This document shows, piece by piece, positions 2,473 through 30,784 of a stretch of DNA of 33,927 bases. The translations under genes and the position numbers were made by a program. Each line of letters starts with the position of its first letter. Positions within the stretch are counted from its first letter, which is position 1. The notes beneath the pieces were generated by a model. It was not told the DNA's origin, made no database searches, and was given only the letters and a program-made list of their open reading frames with translations. This DNA comes from Patescibacteria group bacterium. GTDB taxonomy: Bacteria > Patescibacteriota > Patescibacteriia > UBA1558 > UBA10009. The stretch spans positions 1 through 33,927 of the forward strand of contig DATDUR010000096.1 in assembly GCA_035290305.1 (NCBI GenBank), read 5' to 3'.

Positions 2473-3522
2473 ATGAAAAAAGTCGCCGTCATCATTGTTA
2501 ATTACAACGGAAAAAAATATCTCCCCAACCTGTTCGGGAGTATTTTTAAGTATCCGCCCCAAAAGGCCGGTTGGGAGATAATCGTGGTGGATAATAATTC
2601 CGCTGACGGTTCCGATTTATGGCTGATTAAAAATTATCCCAACCTCACCCTGTTAAAGCAGGAAAAAAATCTGGGTTTTGCCGAGGGCAACAACGTCGGC
2701 ATCAGATACGCGGCCCAGCACGGTTTTGATTACGTGATGCTCTTAAACCAGGATATTATCGTAACGGAAAATTATCTGGACCGTTTGGCGGAAACGGCCG
2801 AAAGCGATGAGCGGATAGCCGCCGTTCAGCCGAAAATTATGCTTTATCCCGACAAAGAATTGGTTAACAGCGCGGGTAATATTATACATTTTTTAGGCTT
2901 TGGTTATACCAGGGGACATAAGCTGCCAAATTCCAAATTCCAAATTACCGATTCCCAAGTGAATTACTGCTCCGGAGCGGCGGTTTTGTACAAACTGGCC
3001 GTTTTAAAAAAGGTCGGGCTGTTTAACGGCGACTTTTTTATGTATCACGAGGATTTGGATTTAGGCTGGCGGTTAAGCCTGGCCGGCTACCAAAACGTCA
3101 TCAATCCGGCGGCCGTGGTCTATCACCAGTATGAATTTTCCCGCAGCATTAAAAAATTTTATTACATGGAAAGAAACCGCTACCTGACTATTTTCCAGAA
3201 TTACCGCTTAGGCACCATCCTGCTGATTCTGCCGGCCCTGGTTTTTATGGAACTGGGTTTGTTCGCCTGGTCTTTTAAAAACGGCTGGTGGTCGGAGAAA
3301 ATCAGGGTCTACGCTTATTTTTTGAACCCTTTTAACTGGAGCAGGCTTTTGAGAGTCAGGAAAAACGTTCAAAGGTTAAGGGTTAAAAAAGACCGGGCCG
3401 TGGTCAGGCGTTTTTCCGGCAAGATAGAACATCAGGAAGTCAACGGTCCGCTACTGACTTCCGTGGTTAATCCCGTTTTTAATTTATACTGGCAGGTAAT
3501 GAAGAATTTAATTTTATGGTAA
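2473..3522 (+). CDS. family 2 glycosyltransferase (rhamnosyltransferase-like)
   Basis: 349 aa with motifs VAVIIVNYNG, VVDNNSADGS, LNQD and HEDLDLGWR, plus a C-terminal hydrophobic segment. Confidence 0.9.
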   Translation: MKKVAVIIVNYNGKKYLPNLFGSIFKYPPQKAGWEIIVVDNNSADGSDLWLIKNYPNLTLLKQEKNLGFAEGNNVGIRYAAQHGFDYVMLLNQDIIVTENYLDRLAETAESDERIAAVQPKIMLYPDKELVNSAGNIIHFLGFGYTRGHKLPNSKFQITDSQVNYCSGAAVLYKLAVLKKVGLFNGDFFMYHEDLDLGWRLSLAGYQNVINPAAVVYHQYEFSRSIKKFYYMERNRYLTIFQNYRLGTILLILPALVFMELGLFAWSFKNGWWSEKIRVYAYFLNPFNWSRLLRVRKNVQRLRVKKDRAVVRRFSGKIEHQEVNGPLLTSVVNPVFNLYWQVMKNLILW

Positions 3523-4673
3523 AAAACGACAAGCGTCTAAAAATCGCCCAGATAGTTTCCACCTTTCCGCCGTATCGCGGCGGCATGGGCAACGTGGCTT
3601 ACCACCTGACGGACAGCCTGTCCCGGCTGGGCTACGAGGTGGTGGTGTTTACGCCCAAAACCAAGTTGTCGGACGTTAACATGCAAAGCTATTTTAAGAT
3701 TCACAAATTACTGCCCCAGTTTAAGTTCGGCAACTCGGCCATTGTGCTGCAGTTGGCTTATCATCTCTTAAAATTTGACCTGGTCCATCTGCATTACCCT
3801 TTTTTGGGCGCTTCTTTGGGCGTAATTCTGGCCAAGCTAATAAGAGGCAAAAAAATAAAATTCATTCTGCATTATCACATGGATTTGGTGGGCCAAGACT
3901 GGCGTTCCTTCGTCTATAAATTTTATAACTGGATTTTTTTAAGCTCTTTGATTAAATTTTCCGACTATGTCATCACCACCTCCGCAGACTATCTTAAAAT
4001 GTCATTGCTCGGAAAATATTATTTTAAAAATGAAGATAAGTTTGAAATCATACCTAACGGGGTGGATTTGGACTATTTTAAACCCAGGCACAAAGATTCT
4101 TTACTGATGACCAGGTATAAATTGCACGATAAAAAAGTGATTTTATTCGTCGGCGGTTTGGACAGCGCCCATTATTTTAAGGGGGTGAATTACCTGCTGA
4201 AAGCTTTTGAGCGGCTGAAACGGGAGGACGTCAAGCTGATTATCGTGGGCGAAGGCAATCTTAAATCGGTTTACGAAGATATGGTGGATTCCTCCGGCTT
4301 AAACCATCAGGTTATTTTCATCGGTTACGTTCCTGACCAGGAACTGGTTAAATATTACAATTTATGCGATTTATTGGTTTTGCCCTCAATTGATAAAAGC
4401 GAAGCTTTCGGCATGGTGTTGCTTGAGGCCATGGCCTGCGGCAAGGCGGTTTTGGCCAGCAGCCTGCCGGGCGTCCGACAGGTGGTGGAAGTAAACGTCA
4501 ACGGCCGGTTATTTAAACCCAAAGACGCGGACAATCTGGCCAGCCACCTGAATAGGCTGTTGGACGATAAAAACGATTTGGTTAATTTCGGCGCCAACGG
4601 CCGGAAAATCGTGGAAAAAGATTACAGCTGGAAAACAATTACCGAAACTCTGCTTAAAATTTATCAAAGCTAG
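3516..4673 (+). CDS. GT4-type (GT-B fold) glycosyltransferase
   Basis: 385 aa. The C-terminal half carries SEAFGMVLLEAMACGKAVLAS (E-x7-E type motif). It overlaps the upstream gene by 7 nt. Confidence 0.9.
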   Translation: MVKNDKRLKIAQIVSTFPPYRGGMGNVAYHLTDSLSRLGYEVVVFTPKTKLSDVNMQSYFKIHKLLPQFKFGNSAIVLQLAYHLLKFDLVHLHYPFLGASLGVILAKLIRGKKIKFILHYHMDLVGQDWRSFVYKFYNWIFLSSLIKFSDYVITTSADYLKMSLLGKYYFKNEDKFEIIPNGVDLDYFKPRHKDSLLMTRYKLHDKKVILFVGGLDSAHYFKGVNYLLKAFERLKREDVKLIIVGEGNLKSVYEDMVDSSGLNHQVIFIGYVPDQELVKYYNLCDLLVLPSIDKSEAFGMVLLEAMACGKAVLASSLPGVRQVVEVNVNGRLFKPKDADNLASHLNRLLDDKNDLVNFGANGRKIVEKDYSWKTITETLLKIYQS

Positions 4674-6721: not shown

Positions 6722-8810
6722 AAATGTAATTTTTGGCGTCAATGGCGTACCACTGGTCGGCGATTTCTTTTTCCGCCGCTATTTTTTCGGCGGCGTCAAA
6801 CCAATAATCGTTTAAAACAAAATAAACGTCGTTAATGCCGGTTAAATATCTGGCCGTGGCAATGATGTCGGGGGTCGGCTGTTTGCCGTAAGCCAGATTT
6901 TCGTATAACTGGTAAAGGCGGCTGCCGGTCGGCACCGGGTAAAAATAATAGCCGTTATAATAATATTTAAAGCCCAGCTCCCTAATGGCCGCGGCCGAAA
7001 CCGGCTGGGCAGCCAAAACGACATAAGGCTGGTTTTGTTGAATCCGTTCAATGAAATTAACGGTCTTAACGTCCACGGCCGAGGTGGAATAGCCGTGGTC
7101 TTCAACGATTTTATCCACCCGGGGATAGCTAAGATAAAAAGAAAGGCTTATGGCCAAAGACAGCAGGATAAAGGAGAGAAAAACCATCAGCGACTTTTGT
7201 TCCGTCAGCTTTTTATAAAATAGATAAAAAGTTATCAGAATAAAGGGCGCGAGCATGTAGACGGCCAGTTTAAAAATCCTGTCCGGGTAAGTAAGCTGTT
7301 CGTAGGAAACCAGCGACAAAAAGGAAATCATGCCTTTAACCAGCAGAAAATTGGCCAAAAGGACGATAAAGCCGAACAAATAAACGGCGTATCTTTTCAA
7401 CTGCCTGTGTTTGTAAATAAAGAAAATCCCCACTATGGCCAGGGCAATGACCAGAAAAATTAAATTATAGCCGAAGTCATAAATTAAATCGGTAAAGGAA
7501 ACGAATTTACGGTAGTAAAAATCAAAGTTTAAAGAATCAAGAAACTGAATGATGTTGGACCACCAGTTTGAGCGCAGGGAAACCTTTAACTGCGACAAGG
7601 TCAGGGAATTTACGATGAAGGCGATCGGCAGGGCCAGAGCGCCGAGGATAATCACTTCCCAGAGCATTGACTGGTGCAGAATGACCGGCAGTTTGAATTT
7701 AGTCTTCCAATGCTGGTAAAGGGCCAGGACGATAAAATAAAACAGCAGGGGTATTCCGGAAATGGGATGGATAGCAATGGTCATCAGAGTTAATATTCCC
7801 AGCGGCCAGAGCGAAGCTTGGGGATGAGTGATGTAATAAAGGGATAAAAGCACGGTCAGCAGGAAAAACAAATTGGCCAGAGCCTGGGGCGTGGTGGAAA
7901 TAAAATCGCCAAAGGGGAAAATTAAAAAGCTTAAAGCCAGCAGTAAGACCAAGCCCGGCTTAGCCTTAAAATTATCTTTAAAAGCGTAAAAAATGGTGGC
8001 CGGCAGATAAACGGCCGCGGTTAGAGGCACCAGGATTTTATCCAGCAGTTCAAGGGAAACATTTAACAGCCGGTGGATGAAAATAATCAGGCTGTACTGG
8101 CCGATGTAATAAAACGGTTTGGGCAAGAGGGTGCCGTTGGCCAGAATCAGCTGAAGGTTGGTCCGGTGGATAAACGGATCATAGTCAAAACCGATTCGGT
8201 AAACTATCCAGGCCGCGGAAAAACTCAAAAAACAGTGCAGGACGATAAAGAAGAGCGGCCAAGAGGTGCCGGCCGAACGGATGATAAAGAATAAACAGAG
8301 GGTGGCGAAAAAGTAAAGATAAAAAATTTCCGGCGGCAGAATTTCCCAGGGCGAGCGGATGCTCTGGCTGGTCTGGGAATTAAAAAGGATGTAAACGATA
8401 ACGATAAAAAACAGGAGGTAAAGGACGGTTAGGGGATTGAATTTGAATCGTTTACGGAAAAATCTCGGGCTAATTTCAAAAACCAGGGGAAATCTCTTAA
8501 CCGCCAAAGTCAAACCCAGGGCCAGTAGTCCCAAAGTGGCGTAAAAAACGGCGGCATTAAGATAAGACAGGTAAAAAGCCAGCGTGCCGATTAAACCGGC
8601 CGCGACCGTTAAAAACAGCAAGCCGTAGATAAATTTACAGGTCCAGGAATTTTTTAAAAACAGATAGTTGCCCAAAGCCAGGCTGTTTAAAATCAGATAT
8701 AACAAGCCGGCCCAGAACAAAAGCCGGCCGTCAGGCCCGGCTAAAAGCAGCACGGCGATTAAAATCAGGTTGAAGGCCAAAAACCTTTTGTAATTAAGGT
8801 TGATTAACAT
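6705..8810 (-). CDS. large polytopic membrane protein with C-terminal soluble domain (possible GT-C-type transferase or polymerase)
   Basis: 701 aa. About 560 aa are almost continuous hydrophobic helices, followed by a roughly 140-aa hydrophilic Tyr/Ala-rich tail. I recognise no catalytic motif. Its 3' end overlaps the convergent methyltransferase gene by 17 nt. Confidence 0.75.
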   Translation of the reverse strand: MLINLNYKRFLAFNLILIAVLLLAGPDGRLLFWAGLLYLILNSLALGNYLFLKNSWTCKFIYGLLFLTVAAGLIGTLAFYLSYLNAAVFYATLGLLALGLTLAVKRFPLVFEISPRFFRKRFKFNPLTVLYLLFFIVIVYILFNSQTSQSIRSPWEILPPEIFYLYFFATLCLFFIIRSAGTSWPLFFIVLHCFLSFSAAWIVYRIGFDYDPFIHRTNLQLILANGTLLPKPFYYIGQYSLIIFIHRLLNVSLELLDKILVPLTAAVYLPATIFYAFKDNFKAKPGLVLLLALSFLIFPFGDFISTTPQALANLFFLLTVLLSLYYITHPQASLWPLGILTLMTIAIHPISGIPLLFYFIVLALYQHWKTKFKLPVILHQSMLWEVIILGALALPIAFIVNSLTLSQLKVSLRSNWWSNIIQFLDSLNFDFYYRKFVSFTDLIYDFGYNLIFLVIALAIVGIFFIYKHRQLKRYAVYLFGFIVLLANFLLVKGMISFLSLVSYEQLTYPDRIFKLAVYMLAPFILITFYLFYKKLTEQKSLMVFLSFILLSLAISLSFYLSYPRVDKIVEDHGYSTSAVDVKTVNFIERIQQNQPYVVLAAQPVSAAAIRELGFKYYYNGYYFYPVPTGSRLYQLYENLAYGKQPTPDIIATARYLTGINDVYFVLNDYWFDAAEKIAAEKEIADQWYAIDAKNYIFRYSK

Positions 8811-24690: not shown

Positions 24691-24787
24691 TCGGGGGTCG
24701 TCCCTCGGCCGTAGCCCATAGCCGGGCACGGCCTACGGGCAGCTCGCCCATAGGGCTATGCCCGAGGGAGGCTAATGGTAGGACACC
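24691..24787 (+). pseudogene. remnant of tRNA-Gln 5' part (nt 1-27), split by a 70-nt insertion
   Basis: 24691-24702 plus 24773-24787 are identical to nt 1-12 and 13-27 of the intact tRNA at 25062. The 4 upstream nt (TTAT) are also shared. There is no anticodon loop, T arm or 3' acceptor strand. Confidence 0.8.
24703..24772 (+). repeat. 70-nt GC-rich palindromic insertion (three-way-junction-like) in the D-arm position of the tRNA remnant
   Basis: Closing stem CCCTCGG/CCGAGGG is continued by GTAGCCC/GGGCTAT. It encloses two small hairpins, GCCG-GGCA-CGGC and GGGC-AGCTC-GCCC. The segment is absent from the intact tRNA copy. Confidence 0.6.
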
Positions 24788-25061
24788 TTATAATAATAAG
24801 ATGAAAAGCGATTTATATTATATTTACGTTTTGCTTAGTTTAAAAGATAATAATCTTTATATTGGATGTACTTCAAATTTGGATAAAAGGTTAAAATATC
24901 ATAATCAAGGAAGGGTAAAGTCAACACAAAATAGAAGACCTTTTAAATTAGTTTACTTTGAAGAATATACTGACAAGTACTTAGCTTTTAAAACGGAAAG
25001 GTCTTATAAAACAGCTAAAGGTAAAAGAATCTTAAAATCTAAAATAAAAAATAATACTTAT
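24788..25061 (+). mobile_element. AT-rich GIY-YIG ORF module inserted between duplicated tRNA-Gln 5' segments
   Basis: It is bounded by 31-nt direct repeats (the left copy is interrupted), is strongly AT-rich relative to its flanks, and carries one small nuclease-family ORF. Confidence 0.4.
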
Positions 25062-25076
25062 TCGGGGGTCGTCTAA
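24801..25076 (+). CDS. GIY-YIG nuclease family protein (small, UPF0213-like)
   Basis: 91 aa with YYIYVL...LYIGCTSNLDKRLKYHNQG...YFEE, the GIY/YIG-Arg-Glu pattern. The last 5 codons and the TAA (25074-25076) are encoded by nt 1-15 of the tRNA-Gln gene. Confidence 0.82.
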   Translation: MKSDLYYIYVLLSLKDNNLYIGCTSNLDKRLKYHNQGRVKSTQNRRPFKLVYFEEYTDKYLAFKTERSYKTAKGKRILKSKIKNNTYSGVV

Positions 25077-25135
25077 TGGTAGGACACCAGGTTTTGGTCC
25101 TGGTAATAGGGGTTCGATTCCCTTCCCCCGAGCCA
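25062..25135 (+). tRNA. tRNA-Gln (anticodon UUG), CCA encoded
   Basis: Hand-folded cloverleaf. Acceptor stem TCGGGGG/CCCCCGA with the U1-A72 pair typical of bacterial tRNA-Gln. D loop AATGGTA. Anticodon stem CCAGG/CCTGG with loop TT-TTG-GT. T arm AGGGG-TTCGATT-CCCTT, discriminator G and CCA. Confidence 0.9.
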
Positions 25136-25180
25136 ATAACTTTGAAAATTAATTCAAATCTTTACTAAAGATTTAACTGT

Positions 25181-25648
25181 ATGAATAGTAATATAAAATT
25201 TTCTGAGAACCTTATAAAAGGCAAGGTAGCTGAAGTAATCTTTGAACAGATGTTTAGAGAATCCGGAAAATTTACGATTTTGAAATCTGGTTATGAATAT
25301 ATCTTTCCGGAGTTAGCTCAATACAAACAGTTGCCAAGAGTAGAATTGATGCTTCAGAATATTAAAGATATCCCTGATTTTATTCTAATTTCAGATGATA
25401 AAAGGAAAGTTTATTTAGTGGAAGTAAAATATAGAACAAACTTAGTAAATAAAGAGATTTTAAAAATGGCAGAAAAGACACTAAAAGCATGGAATCACTC
25501 CTGCTTATTTGTCGCTTCACCTGATGGTTTCTATTTTGGACCTTGTAATACCATAGTTAACAATGGCGGCAAAATCGAACTCTTTAAATGGATAAATAAT
25601 GAAATCCAAAACGAGTATCTTAAATTGCTTAAAAAATTTGAAAAATAA
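25181..25648 (+). CDS. hypothetical protein with PD-(D/E)xK nuclease-like motif
   Basis: 155 aa. An N-terminal helix with Glu (KVAEVIFEQMF) is followed by IPDFILISDDKRKVYLVEVKYR (D ... E-x-K spacing). The gene is AT-rich and ends at a strong terminator. Confidence 0.65.
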   Translation: MNSNIKFSENLIKGKVAEVIFEQMFRESGKFTILKSGYEYIFPELAQYKQLPRVELMLQNIKDIPDFILISDDKRKVYLVEVKYRTNLVNKEILKMAEKTLKAWNHSCLFVASPDGFYFGPCNTIVNNGGKIELFKWINNEIQNEYLKLLKKFEK

Positions 25649-25662
25649 AAAAATAATAATTT

Positions 25663-26113: not shown

Positions 26114-27307
26114 TTAAACTTTTAAAATCTCCTCAACGGAAGTAAGGCCGTTTAGAGCTTTGTGGAGAGCGTCCTGATTAAAAACAAGCATCTCTTCTTT
26201 AAGGGCGGCTGATTTTATTTTTTCCAATTCAGCGCTGGAGAGGATTGACTTAACAATCGCCGGAGTCATTTCCAAAAATTCAAAAACGCCGAGGCGGCCC
26301 AGATAACCGCCGTTGGAACATCGTCCGCAACCCCTGCCATAATAAAACTTCAATCCTTCGGTTGTTTCCAAATCAAAACGTTTTTTAATCTCGCTTAAAG
26401 TTTTTTTATCCGGTTCAGCCGCAACGGAACAATGCGGGCAGATTTTTCTGACCAGCTTCTGGGCAACGATTAAGCTTGCCGATTCGACAATGGCGGCGGG
26501 GGAGAGTCCTAAAGAAATCAGTCTTTTGAGAGCCGAATAAACGCCTGCGGCGCTTAAAGAAGCTAAAACCAGCTTACCGTTAAGAGCGGCTTGGACGGCT
26601 AAGTTGGCGCTGGACTTATCTCTTATCTCGTCAATCATGATAATGTCCGGGTCCTGGTTTAAAAAGGAAGATATGGCCAAACTTAAAGTCAAACCCGATT
26701 CGGGATTAATCTGACATTGATTAACGCCGGGCAGACGATAAACAATCCGTTCCTCTACGGTGGAAATGTTGACTTCCGGCCGGTTTAAATCGTTTAAAAG
26801 CGAATAAAGAGTGCTGGTTTTACCGTTGCCGGCCGAAGCAGCAAATAAAATCAAACCGCGCCCCCTGGCGGTTTTTTGTTCCAAAAGCATTGCCAGTTCT
26901 TGAGGCAGGCCCAAGTCTGCCAAAACCAAATTTTTATCGCTTTCGTTTAAAAGACGGATGACCGCCTTTTCTCCCCGGGTCACCGGCATAATCGAAACCC
27001 TGAAAGATATTCTATAATCGGGCGAGCTTACCTTAAAACGGCCGTCCTGGGGCAGGCGATGTTCGTCAATTTTTAAACCGGCTAAAATTTTTATTCTTTT
27101 TAACAAACCGGCCTCAAGCTCTTTGGGCAGGCTCAAAACTTCCTCCAAAACGCCGTCAAGCCTGTGCCGGACTACGAGATTTTTTTCAGTCGGTTCAAGG
27201 TGAAGGTCGGAAGCGTTTTTTAAAACCGCGTACTCCAACAAAGTATCCAGCACCCGGACCACCGGCAGGCCTTGAATTTGTTCGAGCTTAAGTTTATCTT
27301 GGATCAT
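26114..27307 (-). CDS. GspE/PilB-family secretion/pilus ATPase, short and divergent
   Basis: 397 aa with the N2-domain motif RLPQDGRF, Walker A AGNGKTS, Walker B DIIMIDEIRD and the tetracysteine CPHC...CGRC cluster. The Asp box and His box are degenerate (see findings). Confidence 0.9.
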   Translation of the reverse strand: MIQDKLKLEQIQGLPVVRVLDTLLEYAVLKNASDLHLEPTEKNLVVRHRLDGVLEEVLSLPKELEAGLLKRIKILAGLKIDEHRLPQDGRFKVSSPDYRISFRVSIMPVTRGEKAVIRLLNESDKNLVLADLGLPQELAMLLEQKTARGRGLILFAASAGNGKTSTLYSLLNDLNRPEVNISTVEERIVYRLPGVNQCQINPESGLTLSLAISSFLNQDPDIIMIDEIRDKSSANLAVQAALNGKLVLASLSAAGVYSALKRLISLGLSPAAIVESASLIVAQKLVRKICPHCSVAAEPDKKTLSEIKKRFDLETTEGLKFYYGRGCGRCSNGGYLGRLGVFEFLEMTPAIVKSILSSAELEKIKSAALKEEMLVFNQDALHKALNGLTSVEEILKV

Positions 27308-27343: not shown

Positions 27344-27351
27344 TAATGTTT

Positions 27352-27426
27352 GCGTATATCTGATGTCCCGCGTTAGCGGGATATGGGCGCAGGCTCGCCG
27401 GAGGCGAACCGGAGCCAGATATACGC
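27352..27426 (+). other. 75-nt GC-rich structured element (three-way junction), abutting the left inverted repeat
   Basis: A perfect 11-bp closing stem GCGTATATCTG/CAGATATACGC encloses two hairpins: ATGTCCCGC-GTTA-GCGGGATAT, and GGCT..CCGG-AGGCGAA-CCGG-AGCC. Confidence 0.5.
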
Positions 27427-27498
27427 TGTTAGCTGATGTAGTTAAAAGTTTTTATCCCGACGTAAAGTCGGGACATTATTTAGGGCTATTTTTTATTT
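27427..27498. repeat. left 72-nt inverted repeat (IR-L) of the cassette
   Basis: Its reverse complement matches 30262-30333 at 68/72 positions by hand alignment. It contains the hairpin TCCCGAC-GTAAA-GTCGGGA. Confidence 0.88.
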
Positions 27499-27499
27499 T

Positions 27500-27528
27500 T
27501 TGAAACTGTACTATGTGATTAATATTAT
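27500..27528 (+). promoter_or_regulatory. candidate sigma70-like promoter for the kinase gene
   Basis: TTGAAA (27500-27505), a 17-nt spacer, then TATTAT (27523-27528), immediately inside IR-L. Confidence 0.45.
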
Positions 27529-27592
27529 AAATTAAAATAAGTTAAAATTCAACCCTCAAAGTTTTTTCTTAGGCTTTAGATTATTTTTTAAA

Positions 27593-28597
27593 ATGACAAA
27601 CATTCCTATTTTTGATAAAATAGCATTAAGCTATATAAAGCCATTTTTTATGAAAAATTATCTATTACGAATCAAAAAAATCAAGAAACAATTCGCTATT
27701 TCCAAAGAAGAGCGTTTTGTAGCCGCTCCCAACGGCACTAATTATAAAGTTTTCCTTTCAAATAATTATGTTATCCGTTTTCGAGACAACAACCCCAAAC
27801 TTTTATCAAGAGAGGCAAATTTTTTGAAACAACTTAATCATGCGCTAATACCAAAAGTTTTGTGGTGCGGAGAAATTGATCAACTATTTTTTATGGTTGA
27901 AAATCGACTTCCTGGGAAAACAATAAATTTAGTTTGGAAAAATCTCTCAGTAAGCAATAAAAAGAATATCATTGAACAAATTGTTGAGTTTTTGCAGTAT
28001 CAGAAAATTCAAACAAAAGATTATGTCTATTCAGTAAAGACGGGTAAAAAATATGAAAGATTTTTGGATTATCTTACAGATGGCTTAAAGCAAAAAGCTA
28101 CTAGTATTAAAAAATTTAAACAAACAAATAAAATAATGGGAGACTTATTATTAATTGTTAACGATCCAGAAGTTAGAAATTTGTTCACTAATAAAACAAA
28201 ATCTACTTTAGTCCACGGCGATCTTATTATTCATAATCTGCTTACAGATGGAAAAAATTTAACGGGAGTTCTTGATTGGGAACTGGCATTATGGGGCGAT
28301 CCTGACTATGACCTTTTTCGCCTCTTTTATTATCAAGGATGTGCGAAAGCCTACCAAGAACAGGGAGTCGATGAAACATTTGAATCTGATTATATGGATA
28401 GGTTAATCGCAACGATTTTGAAGTCTGACTTTATAAAAAATAAAAAATTATTCCAGAGAAAATATCAATTAGTGCGCGCTATTTTTTATCTCAATGCGCT
28501 TTATTGGGCAACAAGCTCAGATAGCCCGGAAAAAAATATCAATGAAATTATAGTACAATGGGATAAAAAAAGCGGGACCAAATACTTGCGTACTTAA
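27593..28597 (+). CDS. phosphotransferase enzyme family (APH/choline-kinase-like) protein
   Basis: 334 aa with the catalytic loop VHGDLIIHNLL and the Mg-binding segment GVLDWELALWGDPDYDL. The gene is very AT-rich. An alternative start is Met20 (27650). Confidence 0.85.
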   Translation: MTNIPIFDKIALSYIKPFFMKNYLLRIKKIKKQFAISKEERFVAAPNGTNYKVFLSNNYVIRFRDNNPKLLSREANFLKQLNHALIPKVLWCGEIDQLFFMVENRLPGKTINLVWKNLSVSNKKNIIEQIVEFLQYQKIQTKDYVYSVKTGKKYERFLDYLTDGLKQKATSIKKFKQTNKIMGDLLLIVNDPEVRNLFTNKTKSTLVHGDLIIHNLLTDGKNLTGVLDWELALWGDPDYDLFRLFYYQGCAKAYQEQGVDETFESDYMDRLIATILKSDFIKNKKLFQRKYQLVRAIFYLNALYWATSSDSPEKNINEIIVQWDKKSGTKYLRT

Positions 28598-28603
28598 TCC
28601 CGC
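28565..28603 (-). terminator. intrinsic terminator of the rSAM-peptide operon, embedded in the 3' end of the convergent kinase gene
   Basis: The minus strand reads GCGGGA-TT-AAGTAC-GCAA-GTATTT-GG-TCCCGC followed by T7. It begins 8 nt after the small ORF's stop codon. Confidence 0.6.
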
Positions 28604-28611
28604 AGGCCGCA

Positions 28612-28707
28612 TTATTTGCAGCCAGTTCGTTTACCCGGGAAAGATGCTCCCGACGGCAGGGGCATAACCCTGGCGATCTTGATCTTCTTGATCTTGATCT
28701 TCTTCAT
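28612..28707 (-). CDS. candidate RiPP precursor peptide, 31 aa (absent from the ORF track)
   Basis: Translation is MKKIKIKKIKIARVMPLPSGASFPGKRTGCK*. An AAAGGAGGTGA SD ends 7 nt (AGGAGG core 9 nt) upstream of the ATG. The ORF starts 16 nt after the rSAM stop on the same strand and is followed by a terminator. Confidence 0.6.
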   Translation of the reverse strand: MKKIKIKKIKIARVMPLPSGASFPGKRTGCK

Positions 28708-28723
28708 CTTGTCTCACCTCCTT

Positions 28724-30178
28724 TCATAATGTACAGGTTTGGCAATTACCTACTGCCGCAGTTCCGTTTGACCGAAGATATTCTACGGCAAGCGCTTCTG
28801 TGACCCTGCGATAAAAATCGCACATGTCGTCAAAAAATTTTTGTTGACCCTCGACCGCTGAGCGAGAGACGACCTCTCTGGTAACATGACATTGTCCACC
28901 ACAGGGTCCTTCTATCTCGCAGCCGGAACAGTACGCATCTGTTCCAGGGAAACGGCTGGCAACTATTTGTACCAAATTACCCCTTTCCTCGAATATTTCA
29001 TCAAAACTGTCTATGTGACCGACTGTCGTGGTAGTGTGGCTACAGATTTTAATACTGCCATCCACATTGAATTCAAGGGTTTTGCCCTGAACGGCAGCAC
29101 AAAACGCGTGATCTCCAGACAAGAGGCTTTCTGATGTCAGATTACGGAATGGAGAATCCCACGTTCCAAAGAAGTTGATACCGTGTTCGTTGGCGTACTT
29201 TTTGAGTCGCATGAGTTTTGCAATTCGCTTCTCAACCGGAACGTGAACTAGACCAACGAGATTATAATCGAAGGCGATCGAAGTCATTTTTCTTTCAATC
29301 GCCAAATCAAGAACGTCTGTGTCGACGAGTTCGAAGTTGCCTCTTGTAACTGTGATGCTGAATCCGTCGAGGGGATAGCCAATCTCTACCAAGAGATCAA
29401 ATTTCTCAAGGATGCGAGCAAATGTTCCCTGTCCGCCCTTTGTTACACGGATGGCATCATTAGCTGTATGGGTGCCGTCAAGTGAGGTTGCAATACGGAC
29501 TTGATACCTCTTGAATATCTCGGCGATCTGTCTAGTCATGAGTACTAAGTTTGTATTAATGGCGAACTCAAACGAGAGATCGTCCATTTTGCTACAGTAT
29601 TCCAACACCCGCTCAATAACGGGCCAGTTGACCAGTGGTTCTGCGTTTCCGAAATGGATATTACCATGGGTTCTTCCTTACTCCCTCGTCAACGCAATGT
29701 ATTGGTCTACACATCGTTTTGCAGTTTTCCAAGTCATGTTAAGTTGCGGAGCCGTTTGTTGATATAAAGGCAACGCCTGGTCAGAGTTGGTTTTGGGCTG
29801 GAAGTGAATGCAGTGTGTGCATTTGAAGTTACACGAATCGCTGATTGCGAGGCCCATTCGATCAACCGTCCGTCGCTCTTGCACCTGGGCGAGTTGCTGT
29901 GTTTTTTTCTCTTGCAGGAATTTTTTCTCATCAAAGCCGGATTCGACAAGAAAAAAAATTTCCGCGAACTCTTGAATAGTACCTTTGGGGTCTTCGTCGC
30001 ACATTTTAGAAACTTCCTCCACAGTAGTTAATTGTCTGAAGAAATCTAAAAATTGAAGACCTTCATTATTGACAATCCTGGGATTGCCATACAGCGTGTG
30101 ATAAACCATTGCCATTTCTGATTTAGAATCAGAAATGATGCGGAGATTCGGGGATAACTGATATCTTTGTTTTTTCAC
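28724..30178 (-). pseudogene. radical SAM/SPASM peptide maturase with N-terminal RRE-like domain, interrupted by one in-frame TAA
   Basis: GTG start at 30178, 8 nt after an AAGGAGG SD. A roughly 90-aa PqqD-like N-domain precedes CNFKCTHC (CxxxCxxC). TAA at 29678-29680 is in the same frame as the downstream ORF (29608-28724), which continues IHFGNAEPLVNW and ends with the SPASM motif CSGCEIEGPCGGQC. The protein would be 483 aa if read through. Confidence 0.85.
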
Positions 30179-30219
30179 GTTTCTATCCTCCTTGCTTTTG
30201 ATGTTAAAGAACTGCTGAT

Positions 30220-30249
30220 ACCTTATCACTACCCCCCCCATTTTGTAAA
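30220..30249 (-). promoter_or_regulatory. candidate promoter of the rSAM operon with a G8 tract in the spacer
   Basis: The minus strand reads TTTACA (30249-30244), an 18-nt spacer containing GGGGGGGG (30239-30232), then TGA-TAAGGT (extended -10, 30228-30220). The match to consensus is weak. Confidence 0.25.
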
Positions 30250-30261
30250 GGGCTTTGTCAT

Positions 30262-30333
30262 AAATAAAAAATAGCCCCAAATAATGTCCCGACTTTACGT
30301 CGGGATAAAAACTTTTAATTACTTCAGCTAATA
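30262..30333. repeat. right 72-nt inverted repeat (IR-R) of the cassette
   Basis: It matches the reverse complement of 27427-27498 at 68/72 positions and contains the hairpin GTCCCGAC-TTTAC-GTCGGGAT. Confidence 0.88.
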
Positions 30334-30341
30334 TTGGATAT

Positions 30342-30381
30342 GAGAACATTAGAATATGAGAACATGAAAACATTAGAACAT
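30342..30381 (+). repeat. five contiguous 8-bp tandem units
   Basis: GAGAACAT TAGAATAT GAGAACAT GAAAACAT TAGAACAT, with consensus (G/T)A(G/A)AA(C/T)AT. The array lies directly outside IR-R. Confidence 0.8.
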
Positions 30382-30430: not shown

Positions 30431-30784
30431 ATGAGACAACTGGCAAATCTTCTGAAAATCAAACAACTGGCCCTGCCCTTGCTGGCGGCATTGCTGTTTA
30501 ACGCCCTGGTTTGGCTGATTATCACCTGGCGCCTGCCCATCAGCGCCGCCTGGATACCCCTGCACTACAACTCTTACTTCGGCATTGACTGGATCGGCCC
30601 CTGGGCCAATATCATTTATTACCCTTTAATTGGACTGGCCATTATCGCCATCAATACCATCCTGCTGATTGTCATCAACGACAATAAAAACGTTTTGAGC
30701 GTCAGCCTGGCCTGGTCGGCGGTGGTTGTCCAGTTGTTTTTGATTACCAGCTTATTAACTTTAATCATTCACTATTTCAGCTAA
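30431..30784 (+). CDS. small membrane protein upstream of mraY
   Basis: 117 aa with 3-4 hydrophobic helices. Its stop directly abuts the mraY start. Confidence 0.65.
   Translation: MRQLANLLKIKQLALPLLAALLFNALVWLIITWRLPISAAWIPLHYNSYFGIDWIGPWANIIYYPLIGLAIIAINTILLIVINDNKNVLSVSLAWSAVVVQLFLITSLLTLIIHYFS

Follow-up and report, generated by a model that had tools for sequence, protein, structure and literature searches.

A probable radical-SAM peptide-modification module with a disrupted maturase gene on an inverted-repeat cassette in a Patescibacteria contig

What does a radical S-adenosylmethionine (radical-SAM) maturase modify, and can it still do so, in a member of the Patescibacteria, or candidate phyla radiation (CPR), bacteria with tiny genomes and few recognised natural-product genes? 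The question is raised by a reverse-strand reading frame at positions 28,724 to 30,178 of a 33,927-nt stretch of DNA (contig DATDUR010000096.1, assembly GCA_035290305.1) from a Patescibacteria group bacterium; the whole of this stretch is called the window below. A first-pass annotation, made from the letters alone, proposed that the frame encodes a three-part maturase acting on a ribosomal peptide, with a peptide-recognition domain, a CxxxCxxC radical-SAM core and a SPASM domain. We find that the locus is probably a module for a peptide made on the ribosome and modified after translation (RiPP), of an uncharacterised CPR-wide family that combines a radical-SAM enzyme, a 31-residue peptide and a kinase, that the maturase is disrupted here, and that the module sits on a non-autonomous insertion bounded by inverted repeats.

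The three-part layout stands. Read from GTG 30178, the translation contains CNFKCTHC at residues 116-123, the GGE-like motif and the C-terminal SPASM cysteines, all as first described except for the first SPASM spacing, which is C360-x18-C379 rather than C-x19-C. The GTG is a credible start, judging by an AAGGAGG Shine-Dalgarno sequence 7 nt upstream and by homologues that begin at the same position. PF04055 was the sole Pfam match reported (48.1 bits against a cut-off of 29.5), the SPASM model TIGR04085 matched the C-terminal 149 residues (31.8 bits against 27), and the Pfam SPASM model PF13186 gave no match to the window maturase. The CxxxCxxC, GGE-like and SPASM cysteine motifs are invariant in 31 aligned homologues, the GGE-like motif lying within IHFGNAEPLVNW (residues 174-185) and part of the SPASM pattern being CSGCEIEGPCGGQC (residues 417-430; 28889-28930); conservation of C156 does not extend beyond the close clade. 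These 31 homologues were used to build an AlphaFold2 model (pLDDT 88, pTM 0.87), which predicts strands at residues 12-17, 22-27 and 31-36 and helices at 38-45, 53-59 and 65-73, with pLDDT 84-95 over residues 1-110, and in this model the N-terminal domain has the three-strand, three-helix winged-helix topology of a RiPP recognition element (RRE). The domain had been likened to PqqD; the fold bears this out, but the PqqD model PF05402 found no match in residues 1-105 at E<=10, and so the RRE call rests on the fold and on homology to TigE. That homology runs the full length of the protein. In a profile search of the PDB the best match by far was 8VPO (E 1.5e-59, query 3-465 on chain 4-458), a match that takes in the crystallographic RRE of TigE, followed by CteB (5WGG, 1e-21) and then ChlB and the anaerobic sulfatase-maturating enzyme (anSME; 1e-6), and Foldseek likewise placed 8VPO (TM 0.79/0.85, 468 columns) ahead of anSME (TM 0.57/0.73, about 385 columns of 484 residues). 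8VPO is TigE, a RiPP cyclopropyl synthase with its RRE at residues 3-85, radical-SAM domain at 108-332 and SPASM domain at 352-469 (PMC10878394).

The annotation had also implied an intact maturase, and this does not hold for the window as assembled. The DNA at 29683-29675 reads GAG TAA GGA, so that the translation runs QYIALTRE-stop-GRTHGNIHFG, and the stop, at codon 167, falls between the cysteine triad and the GGE-like motif. An unbroken coding sequence that includes the GGE-type SAM-binding strand is not found, the TAA parting the triad from HFGNAEP (175-181), and a program-made list of open reading frames (ORFs) splits the region into 29678..30373 and 28724..29608. The next in-frame start is GTG 29608, and starting there would drop the SAM-binding strand; a 484-residue maturase cannot be made from the window as it stands. 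A functional split gene is rejected on the same ground, and recoding of TAA or an alternative genetic code is not credible because TAA is the most used stop in the window, ending 22 of 33 long ORFs. The window does not stand alone in this. A groundwater scaffold in ENA (L085) is 99.6% identical, about 1,850 bp matching save for seven differences: it has ATG where the window has ACG, CAA in place of the TAA, two additional A residues at an A-run near 29215 that frameshift its own radical-SAM gene, and four single-nucleotide polymorphisms clustered just downstream of that insertion. Two near-identical strains thus bear different disabling lesions. Two GTDB representatives are disrupted as well, L011 by a stop at codon 7 and L019 by a frameshift near residue 149 (lesions at ~1,005-2,219 in L085, 2654-2674 in L011 and ~4448 in L019). 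In both of these the adjacent peptide and kinase genes are intact, as they are in the window, whereas the L085 contig stops inside the peptide gene and leaves its kinase gene outside coverage; the pattern in L011 and L019 resembles lost production with an immunity gene kept. Relaxed selection is not seen in the window maturase: it deviates at one of 94 near-invariant columns (D306N), no more than intact homologues do, and any inactivation would therefore be recent. We read the window gene as a recent pseudogene or loss-of-function allele, with a base-call error less likely. A disruption hot spot just before M148, considered since several database proteins begin exactly there, was set aside: the one checked (P0104 on L086) is cut by the contig end.

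The proposed partner of the maturase, the 31-residue peptide, turned out to be a conserved precursor encoded directly downstream. At 47-85% identity the gene order is radical-SAM gene, then a peptide of 30-34 residues, then a convergent APH-fold kinase, and in L001, L002 and L003 the small ORF lies on the radical-SAM strand between the two larger genes, behind a strong Shine-Dalgarno sequence (...STVKAMTSSSSMGGKRTGCK in L002, MKIKTKKIRISKLTPPRGGSEHFGRRTSCK in L003). The peptides of more distant CPR clades (Peribacteria, Saccharibacteria and Absconditabacterales, at 34-48% identity) run to 20-32 residues, mostly 20, such as MRKVKSEIKLSMAGKRTECK, and in some loci come from two gene copies. The ending G-[KR]-R-[TM]-x-C-K-stop was found in 26 ORFs (25 loci and the window). 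Among 15 distinct 31-codon ORFs, G-K-R-T-x-C-K is held through GGC/GGT/GGA, AAA/AAG, CGA/AGA/CGT/CGG, ACT/ACC/ACA/ACG and TGC/TGT; since the motif is kept by synonymous codons and the ORFs end in all three stop codons, we take the peptide to be translated and under selection. All invariant positions lie in the C-terminal heptad G-K/R-R-T-x-C-K, the alternating Lys/Ile(Val) part before it being variable, and Cys and Thr are the core's only invariant side chains that are neither basic nor Gly, Thr also being the only hydroxyl residue kept in all peptides. In a cyanobacterial and ANME-1 clade (L025-L029, L032, L038; ~3400-3890), whose enzymes are 39-41% identical to the window maturase, the precursor lies upstream of the radical-SAM gene, is 34-56 residues long and ends in ...[KNS]R[AV]TCQRR[SN]; its core again reads basic-Thr-Cys, and the clade seems to represent a sister family of RiPPs. 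Hydrophobic, membrane-like ORFs follow the radical-SAM gene in L029. The precursors have no match in NCBIfam, and the core strings GKRTGCK, KRTGCK, GKRTSCK, GKRTECK, ATCQRRS and VTCQRRS are absent from the searchable literature. Annotation generally passes over the true GKRTxCK peptide: it is routinely missed, or a wrong frame is called, as in L001, where a gene caller's 36-residue product (7452-7562) lies in the wrong frame over the precursor gene (7462-7566).

How the module came to lie at this site can be read from a relative without it. The short T2SSE ATPase left of the module has one relative at 81% identity, P0272 on contig L207, and there (371-516) the ATPase gene is divergent from a 117-codon gene 146 nt away, with no cassette between; the product of the latter is 83% identical to that of the window gene 30431-30784, right of the module. 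Because L207 has this uninterrupted orthologous site between flanking genes 81% and 83% identical, the kinase-peptide-radical-SAM module reads as a precise insertion. Alignment of the empty site (...CTCATATCCAACATTATGTTATAATAAATT...) with the window junctions (left ...CAGATATACGCAAACATTA/TGTTATAATAAATT..., right ...CTCATATCCAATATTA/GCTGAAG...; the slash marks the junction) sets its ends at 27344/27348 and 30328/30332. ATTA stands on both sides of the insert and as a single copy in L207, while a 9-bp reading of a possible duplication (CCAACATTA) needs one mismatch per copy; one junction pair was analysed. Arms of 80 nt bracket kinase, peptide and radical-SAM genes, one upstream of each convergent unit, and L001 has equivalent arms that are 94% complementary. 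No transposase or integrase is encoded in the insert. In other relatives the cassette lies between longer direct repeats: 280 nt in L015 (3626-3905, 6829-7106), made of the duplicated 3' end of a response-regulator gene, 51 nt in L001 (5741-5791, 8729-8779), outside the arms, and 66 nt in L009 (3561-3626, 6542-6607), which suggests site-specific or homology-driven integration in these loci. The kinase gene, for its part, has about 29% GC against about 42-48% for the radical-SAM gene in most loci (L001-L019), a gap of 5-16 points that is independent of flanking GC (0.28-0.49). We regard the direct repeats and the GC contrast as further signs of insertion or horizontal spread.

Table 1. Coordinates of the module, its cassette and the sequence features discussed in the text (positions in the window)
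Feature	Position	Strand	Basis or remark
Whole inserted cassette, ~2,985 bp, ATTA on both sides (possibly 9 bp, CCAACATTA)	27344..30332	.	Absent at orthologous site in L207
Structured 71-nt extension at kinase-side end: long hairpin CGTATATCTG...CAGATATACG with inner hairpins	27348..27418	+	z = -4.56
Inverted-repeat arm B, upstream of kinase promoter	27419..27498	+	91% complementary to arm A
Kinase promoter, TTGAAA-17-TATTAT	27500-27528	+	
APH-fold kinase gene, 315 aa; motifs HGDLIIHN, DWE	27593/27650..28597	+	Likely start ATG 27650, by homology
Terminator-like hairpin and T-run after peptide gene	28572..28603	-	Overlaps 3' end of kinase gene
Precursor peptide, 31 aa, MKKIKIKKIKIARVMPLPSGASFPGKRTGCK	28612..28707	-	Directly downstream of maturase, same strand; motif kept via synonymous codons
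Shine-Dalgarno sequence of peptide gene, AAAGGAGGTGA	28714-28723	-	
Radical-SAM/SPASM maturase frame, 484 codons and stop, interrupted by in-frame TAA	28724..30178	-	Translation GTG 30178 to TGA 28724
SPASM domain: C360, C379, C417-x2-C420-x5-C426-x3-C430, C453	28769..29125	-	
G338-T339-W340, invariant	29159..29167	-	At G-Y-W position of cyclopropyl synthases
HFGNAEP, GGE-like SAM-binding motif, residues 175-181	29636..29656	-	Past the stop codon
In-frame TAA, codon 167	29678..29680	-	Homologues mostly Gln; near-identical contig L085 has CAA
CNFKCTHC, CxxxCxxC radical-SAM cluster motif, residues 116-123 (C116, C120, C123)	29810..29833	-	
RRE-like winged-helix domain, N-terminal, residues ~1-100	29879..30178	-	AlphaFold2 secondary structure; alignment to TigE RRE 3-85; Foldseek
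Putative radical-SAM promoter, TTTACA-(G8, 30232-30239)-TGATAAGGT	30220..30249	-	Proposed from conservation in cassettes with other cargo
Inverted-repeat arm A, hairpin TCCCGAC-GTAAA-GTCGGGA, upstream of radical-SAM promoter	30262..30341	-	

The arms belong to a larger family. The inner 24-mer ATTATTTRGGGCTATTTTTTATTT has at least 120 exact matches in metagenome contigs (L087-L206), and about 55 loci, among them L092, L109, L115, L120, L140, L158 and L166, contain arm pairs that face inward across 0.6-5.5 kb when up to 4 mismatches are tolerated, some of them in tandem. What lies between them varies. When 80 arm loci (L087-L166) were searched by tblastn, the radical-SAM and kinase genes occurred together in four and one of them alone in three more; 12 arm pairs carry a different, unrelated radical-SAM/SPASM enzyme (PF04055 and PF13186), accompanied by a methyltransferase, a PqqD-like protein or a transglutaminase-like protein, and the remaining pairs enclose unrelated genes. 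The cargo of 20 arm-bounded cassettes was inventoried, and the Pfam domains of 10 representative proteins (4 of which had no Pfam match) included no transposase or recombinase. Of 116 distinct arms, 114 have a hairpin of 5 bp or more immediately before the 24-mer, built from 41 different stems (e.g. GTTTTGC/GCAAAAC, ATCCGC/GCGGAT, TCCCGCC/GGCGGGA), and we therefore regard the variation as compensatory. Rfam matched only the tRNA-Gln in the window and nothing at E<=1 in three arm-bearing loci. Beside one arm type a promoter-like TTGACA-AAAT-G(n)-TAxTGATAAGGT is conserved, its run of G ranging from 5 to 10 nt across loci (including the window at 30232-30239, L011, L099, L105, L109, L117 and L120) and near-identical copies differing in it by a single G (L120 from L109/L168, L011 from L201), which suggests slipped-strand phase variation, though it may also be homopolymer sequencing error. 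A consensus promoter scan did not report the corresponding radical-SAM promoter of the window. Plain terminators or insulators are an insufficient account of the arms, because a 24-mer exact across at least 120 loci is unexpected for ordinary terminators; both neighbouring host genes are also transcribed away from the cassette. An integron attC-like AAAC/GTTA junction was likewise considered, and its core sites misfit GTTRRRY/RYYYAAC. Two small observations concern the host DNA just outside arm A, where tandem 8-nt repeats of the ATGAGAAC/ATTAGAAT type occupy part of the intergenic region (30340-30381), L207 having one extra unit (~410-470).

Such an arrangement recalls the mobile insertion cassettes (MICs), cargo-carrying non-autonomous derivatives of insertion sequences such as MIC231 of Bacillus cereus, in which passenger genes lie between inverted-repeat ends with no internal transposase. 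The window cassette likewise has passenger genes within inverted repeats and the same ends around different cargo, perhaps also a short flanking duplication, and both an empty orthologous site and terminal inverted repeats common to copies with different cargo are found for it. It differs in its long ends (80-150 nt), each with a covarying hairpin and the exact 24-mer and one with the extra 71-nt hairpin, in a cargo biased to radical-SAM/SPASM modules, and in an arm bearing an outward-insulated promoter with a variable poly-G spacer. We consider the cassette a candidate for a new, previously undescribed mobile element.

Where does the maturase itself belong? It is a fused-RRE radical-SAM/SPASM RiPP maturase and a member of no named family. 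No NCBIfam family model reaches its cut-off for the window protein, the best being PapB (91 bits against 340), then RumMC (88/720), QhpD (82/453), CcpM (77/500), SCIFF (76/425) and anSME (62/349), and the intact homologue P0001 and a cyanobacterial relative gave the same outcome. The first-pass annotation is thus supported as to an enzyme acting on RiPPs but not as to the families it invoked (sactipeptide, ranthipeptide, PqqE and MftC types), since no such model is reached and the nearest characterised relative is a cyclopropyl synthase. With TigE and TvgB (8VPO; PMC10878394) the family shares the RRE, a partial TIM barrel and a SPASM domain with auxiliary clusters I and II (Aux I, Aux II), full-length homology, a conserved G-x-W at the same place and a short adjacent precursor peptide as substrate. 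The differences are as telling. Cyclopropyl synthases are defined by a strictly conserved, specific G-Y-W motif, whose Tyr339 in TigE ligates the fourth iron of Aux I, and Y339A/F/C variants are inactive (PMC10878394); in an HMM alignment G338-Y339-W340 of TigE falls on G-T-W, invariant in 31 of 31 aligned homologues and kept in the cyanobacterial and ANME-1 relatives, with G-S-W in the more distant CPR relatives. Identity to TigE is about 20%, the SPASM motif ends in GQC where the TigE side has GGC or GLC, the TigE/TvgB clusters as described have no counterpart of the kinase found in the window clade, and, whereas known cyclopropyl-synthase substrates are repeats with conserved Val/Ile (TVGG, TIGSVS; PMC10878394), the family's precursors lack the T-V/T-I-G repeat and share only a single C-terminal GKRTxCK. 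Full-length homologues of 482-484 residues occur at 50-85% identity and, where named, are all from Patescibacteria. A search that covered 1.84 billion representatives yielded 345, each standing for a cluster at 50% identity, at E<=1e-30, about 130 of them outscoring a TigE-like entry; the Tyr339 position among these is T or S, F, Y or another residue, and T or S mostly co-occurs with the GQC ending of Cx2Cx5Cx3C. As judged from these sequences, the window maturase falls in a coherent GTW/GQC clade, sister to the cyclopropyl synthases and outside them. No lead for the window clade came from the family's long fusion proteins (peptidase-like, decarboxylase, double radical-SAM), and PADLOC gave only weak generic matches for the kinase and radical-SAM proteins. 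Among the papers listed as best-ranked for Patescibacteria, radical SAM, RiPPs and SPASM none mentions Patescibacteria, and the one listed that combines 'candidate phyla radiation' with 'ranthipeptide' describes a bioinformatics pipeline.

The first-pass annotation had called the module minimal. That description fits only the distant CPR clade, where in nine loci the radical-SAM gene is the only shared gene and tblastn found no kinase. In the window clade the kinase lies convergent downstream of the radical-SAM gene in L001, L002 and L003 (81%, 64% and 53% identity), amid otherwise unrelated surroundings, and in L001-L003, L005-L013 and L015-L020, which is every GTDB locus of 47-85% identity with enough downstream flank. 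It is only remotely like characterised enzymes, its best match, at E 3e-6, being to hygromycin B kinase in the region of the catalytic loop.

Taken together, these features suggest how an intact module might work. The N-terminal KKIKIKKIKI of the peptide would bind the RRE as an added beta-strand, docking as in CteB and TigE, and the invariant core G-K/R-R-T-x-C-K would enter the barrel, where the CxxxCxxC cluster would cleave SAM and the 5'-deoxyadenosyl radical abstract a hydrogen from the core. Aux I has only three cysteine ligands here (C360, C379, C430). In CteB a three-cysteine Aux I leaves an open site for the substrate Cys; the same count in this family, with Thr339 in place of the TigE Tyr, could provide a vacant site for the thiolate of the core Cys, which might then be joined to Thr in a Cys-Thr thioether of the sactipeptide or ranthipeptide type, with Aux I and Aux II carrying the electron away. 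The kinase would either phosphorylate the K-R-T site or give self-protection. We put the thioether forward as a best guess from sequence, held at somewhat less than even confidence, because all top NCBIfam matches (PapB, RumMC, QhpD, CcpM, SCIFF) form thioethers and because the core offers a single invariant Cys with a single invariant Thr, and the Tyr ligand is absent. The known thioether formers (CteB/SCIFF TIGR03974, 5WGG; PapB NF047865; RumMC; QhpD) share with the family a fused or partner RRE, SPASM and Cys-containing cores, but as its best NCBIfam matches (75-91 bits) they fall far under cut-offs of 340-720, and the family's core has only one Cys, with one candidate acceptor at a distance of just 1-2 residues. 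Alternatively, Thr or Cys may be modified oxidatively or within a single residue. The maturase's own C terminus (residues ~476-484; 28727-28753) also caught our attention: most homologues end in N-R-Q-x-C-x-[LFV]-stop, where the window reads GNCQTCTL, and this Cys-bearing tail resembles the precursor core. The corresponding tail of TigE sits in the RRE groove, and the tail here might be a pseudo-substrate or self-regulator.

Several observations weigh against this picture of a thioether-forming RiPP module with a kinase. The nearest solved relative, TigE, makes a carbon-carbon bond (a cyclopropane) and not a thioether, and because no family model reaches its cut-off, chemistry is not transferable from the known families. 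In L031 and L034, one of the two precursor copies has Met in place of Thr, and the spacing, T-x-C in CPR against T-C in cyanobacteria, sits badly with a single conserved cross-link. The distant CPR and cyanobacterial clades lack the kinase, and its action on the peptide is hypothetical. Finally, the TAA might result from faulty assembly or base calling, a prospect we think rather unlikely and return to below.

Of the other accounts, one would make the protein a non-RiPP SPASM enzyme, an anSME-like protein maturase or a cofactor-pathway enzyme beside a fortuitous small ORF. The anSME family (TIGR03942, PDB 4K36-4K39) does share the radical-SAM and SPASM core with two auxiliary clusters, and both model and structures give significant but weak matches (62 bits; TM 0.57). 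However, anSMEs have a protein substrate and no RRE, whereas this enzyme has a fused RRE and an adjacent peptide, its score is far under 349 bits, and the small ORF is kept across clades with synonymous variation and is the only partner common to all of them. Neither of the outcomes that the first-pass annotation had named as counting against it, a best placement with anSME and no RRE fold, was found; the non-RiPP reading is effectively refuted and extremely improbable, and the RiPP-maturase reading stands. A cyclopropyl synthase like TigE/TvgB, converting Ile/Val of the K-I/K-V repeat to (methyl)cyclopropylglycine with GKRTxCK as a recognition follower, is harder to dismiss but still quite improbable: TigE is by far the best solved relative, and the peptide begins with a short Ile/Val-rich repeat, known substrates being repeats with a conserved Val/Ile, but the Tyr whose loss inactivates TigE is Thr or Ser here, identity is low, and it is the C-terminal heptad that is invariant while the Ile/Val positions vary. 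It is also conceivable, though doubtful in our judgement, that the kinase acts first, phosphorylating the Thr of a basophilic K-R-T so that the radical-SAM enzyme then acts on a phospho-peptide, or that a phosphorylated peptide is the end product. K-R-T is a typical basophilic kinase site, its Thr is the sole hydroxyl residue kept in every peptide, the catalytic motifs HGDxxxxN and DWE are intact, and the kinase co-occurs strictly with the radical-SAM gene in the 47-85% clade. Against this, Thr is equally invariant in clades without the kinase, the kinase has no more than a remote relationship to characterised enzymes, and an immunity role would explain no less well why it is kept where the radical-SAM gene is disrupted.

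Then there is the state of the gene itself. If the TAA were a sequencing or assembly error or a minority allele, the gene would be intact in the organism and the module functional. We consider this a minority possibility. The window differs from near-identical L085 at codon 167 by one C-to-T change, the rest of its maturase shows no excess of damaging substitutions, and a metagenome consensus can blend strains, the differences from L085 being clustered. But the stop is a substitution and not a homopolymer indel, no alternative in-frame start recovers the GGE strand, and independent disabling lesions in three other relatives (L085, L011, L019) show that loss of this gene recurs. We therefore keep to a disrupted maturase in an otherwise recognisable RiPP module. 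A bolder proposal joins several parts: an undescribed class of non-autonomous CPR cassettes, with long hairpin-bearing ends, an insulated promoter whose poly-G spacer varies in length and no transposase, that preferentially shuttle radical-SAM RiPP modules between genomes, the present module being one kind of cargo; a GTW-clade modification of the R-T-(x)-C core other than a cyclopropane or any known thioether type; and a kinase kept as immunity when the maturase decays. We think this conjunction unlikely as a whole; if true, such a modification would define a new RiPP class.

The architecture of the maturase is ordinary, and what makes the locus worth following up is the CPR-wide precursor family, the Tyr-to-Thr change at Aux I, the recurrent decay of the maturase and, above all, the cargo cassette. 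Through this family CPR gain a widespread RiPP system (345 representatives at 50% identity) that has cyanobacterial and ANME-1 sister clades, and the family's precursors of 20-34 residues are among the shortest known. A maturase that sits beside the cyclopropyl synthases yet lacks their essential Tyr is a natural test of the role of the Aux I ligand, and the GTW clade is a likely source of new radical chemistry. Repeated breakage of the maturase while the kinase survives, together with a mobile cassette, points to an ecology of gain and loss, and perhaps of "immunity-only" cheating, in episymbiotic bacteria.

Two further features of the window lie outside the cassette. The T2SSE ATPase to its left (26114-27307) is short, at 397 residues, and lacks the T2SSE_N domain of nearly all the 560-590-residue homologues among the matches listed; it has only two close relatives in the protein database (100% and 81% identity). 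Farther to the left, the interval 24750-25650 has low GC (0.28-0.35) and contains a GIY-YIG nuclease gene, a gene for a small protein weakly matching a BsuBI/PstI restriction-endonuclease domain and, at 25062-25135, the tRNA-Gln(ttg) gene, and it may be another acquired segment.

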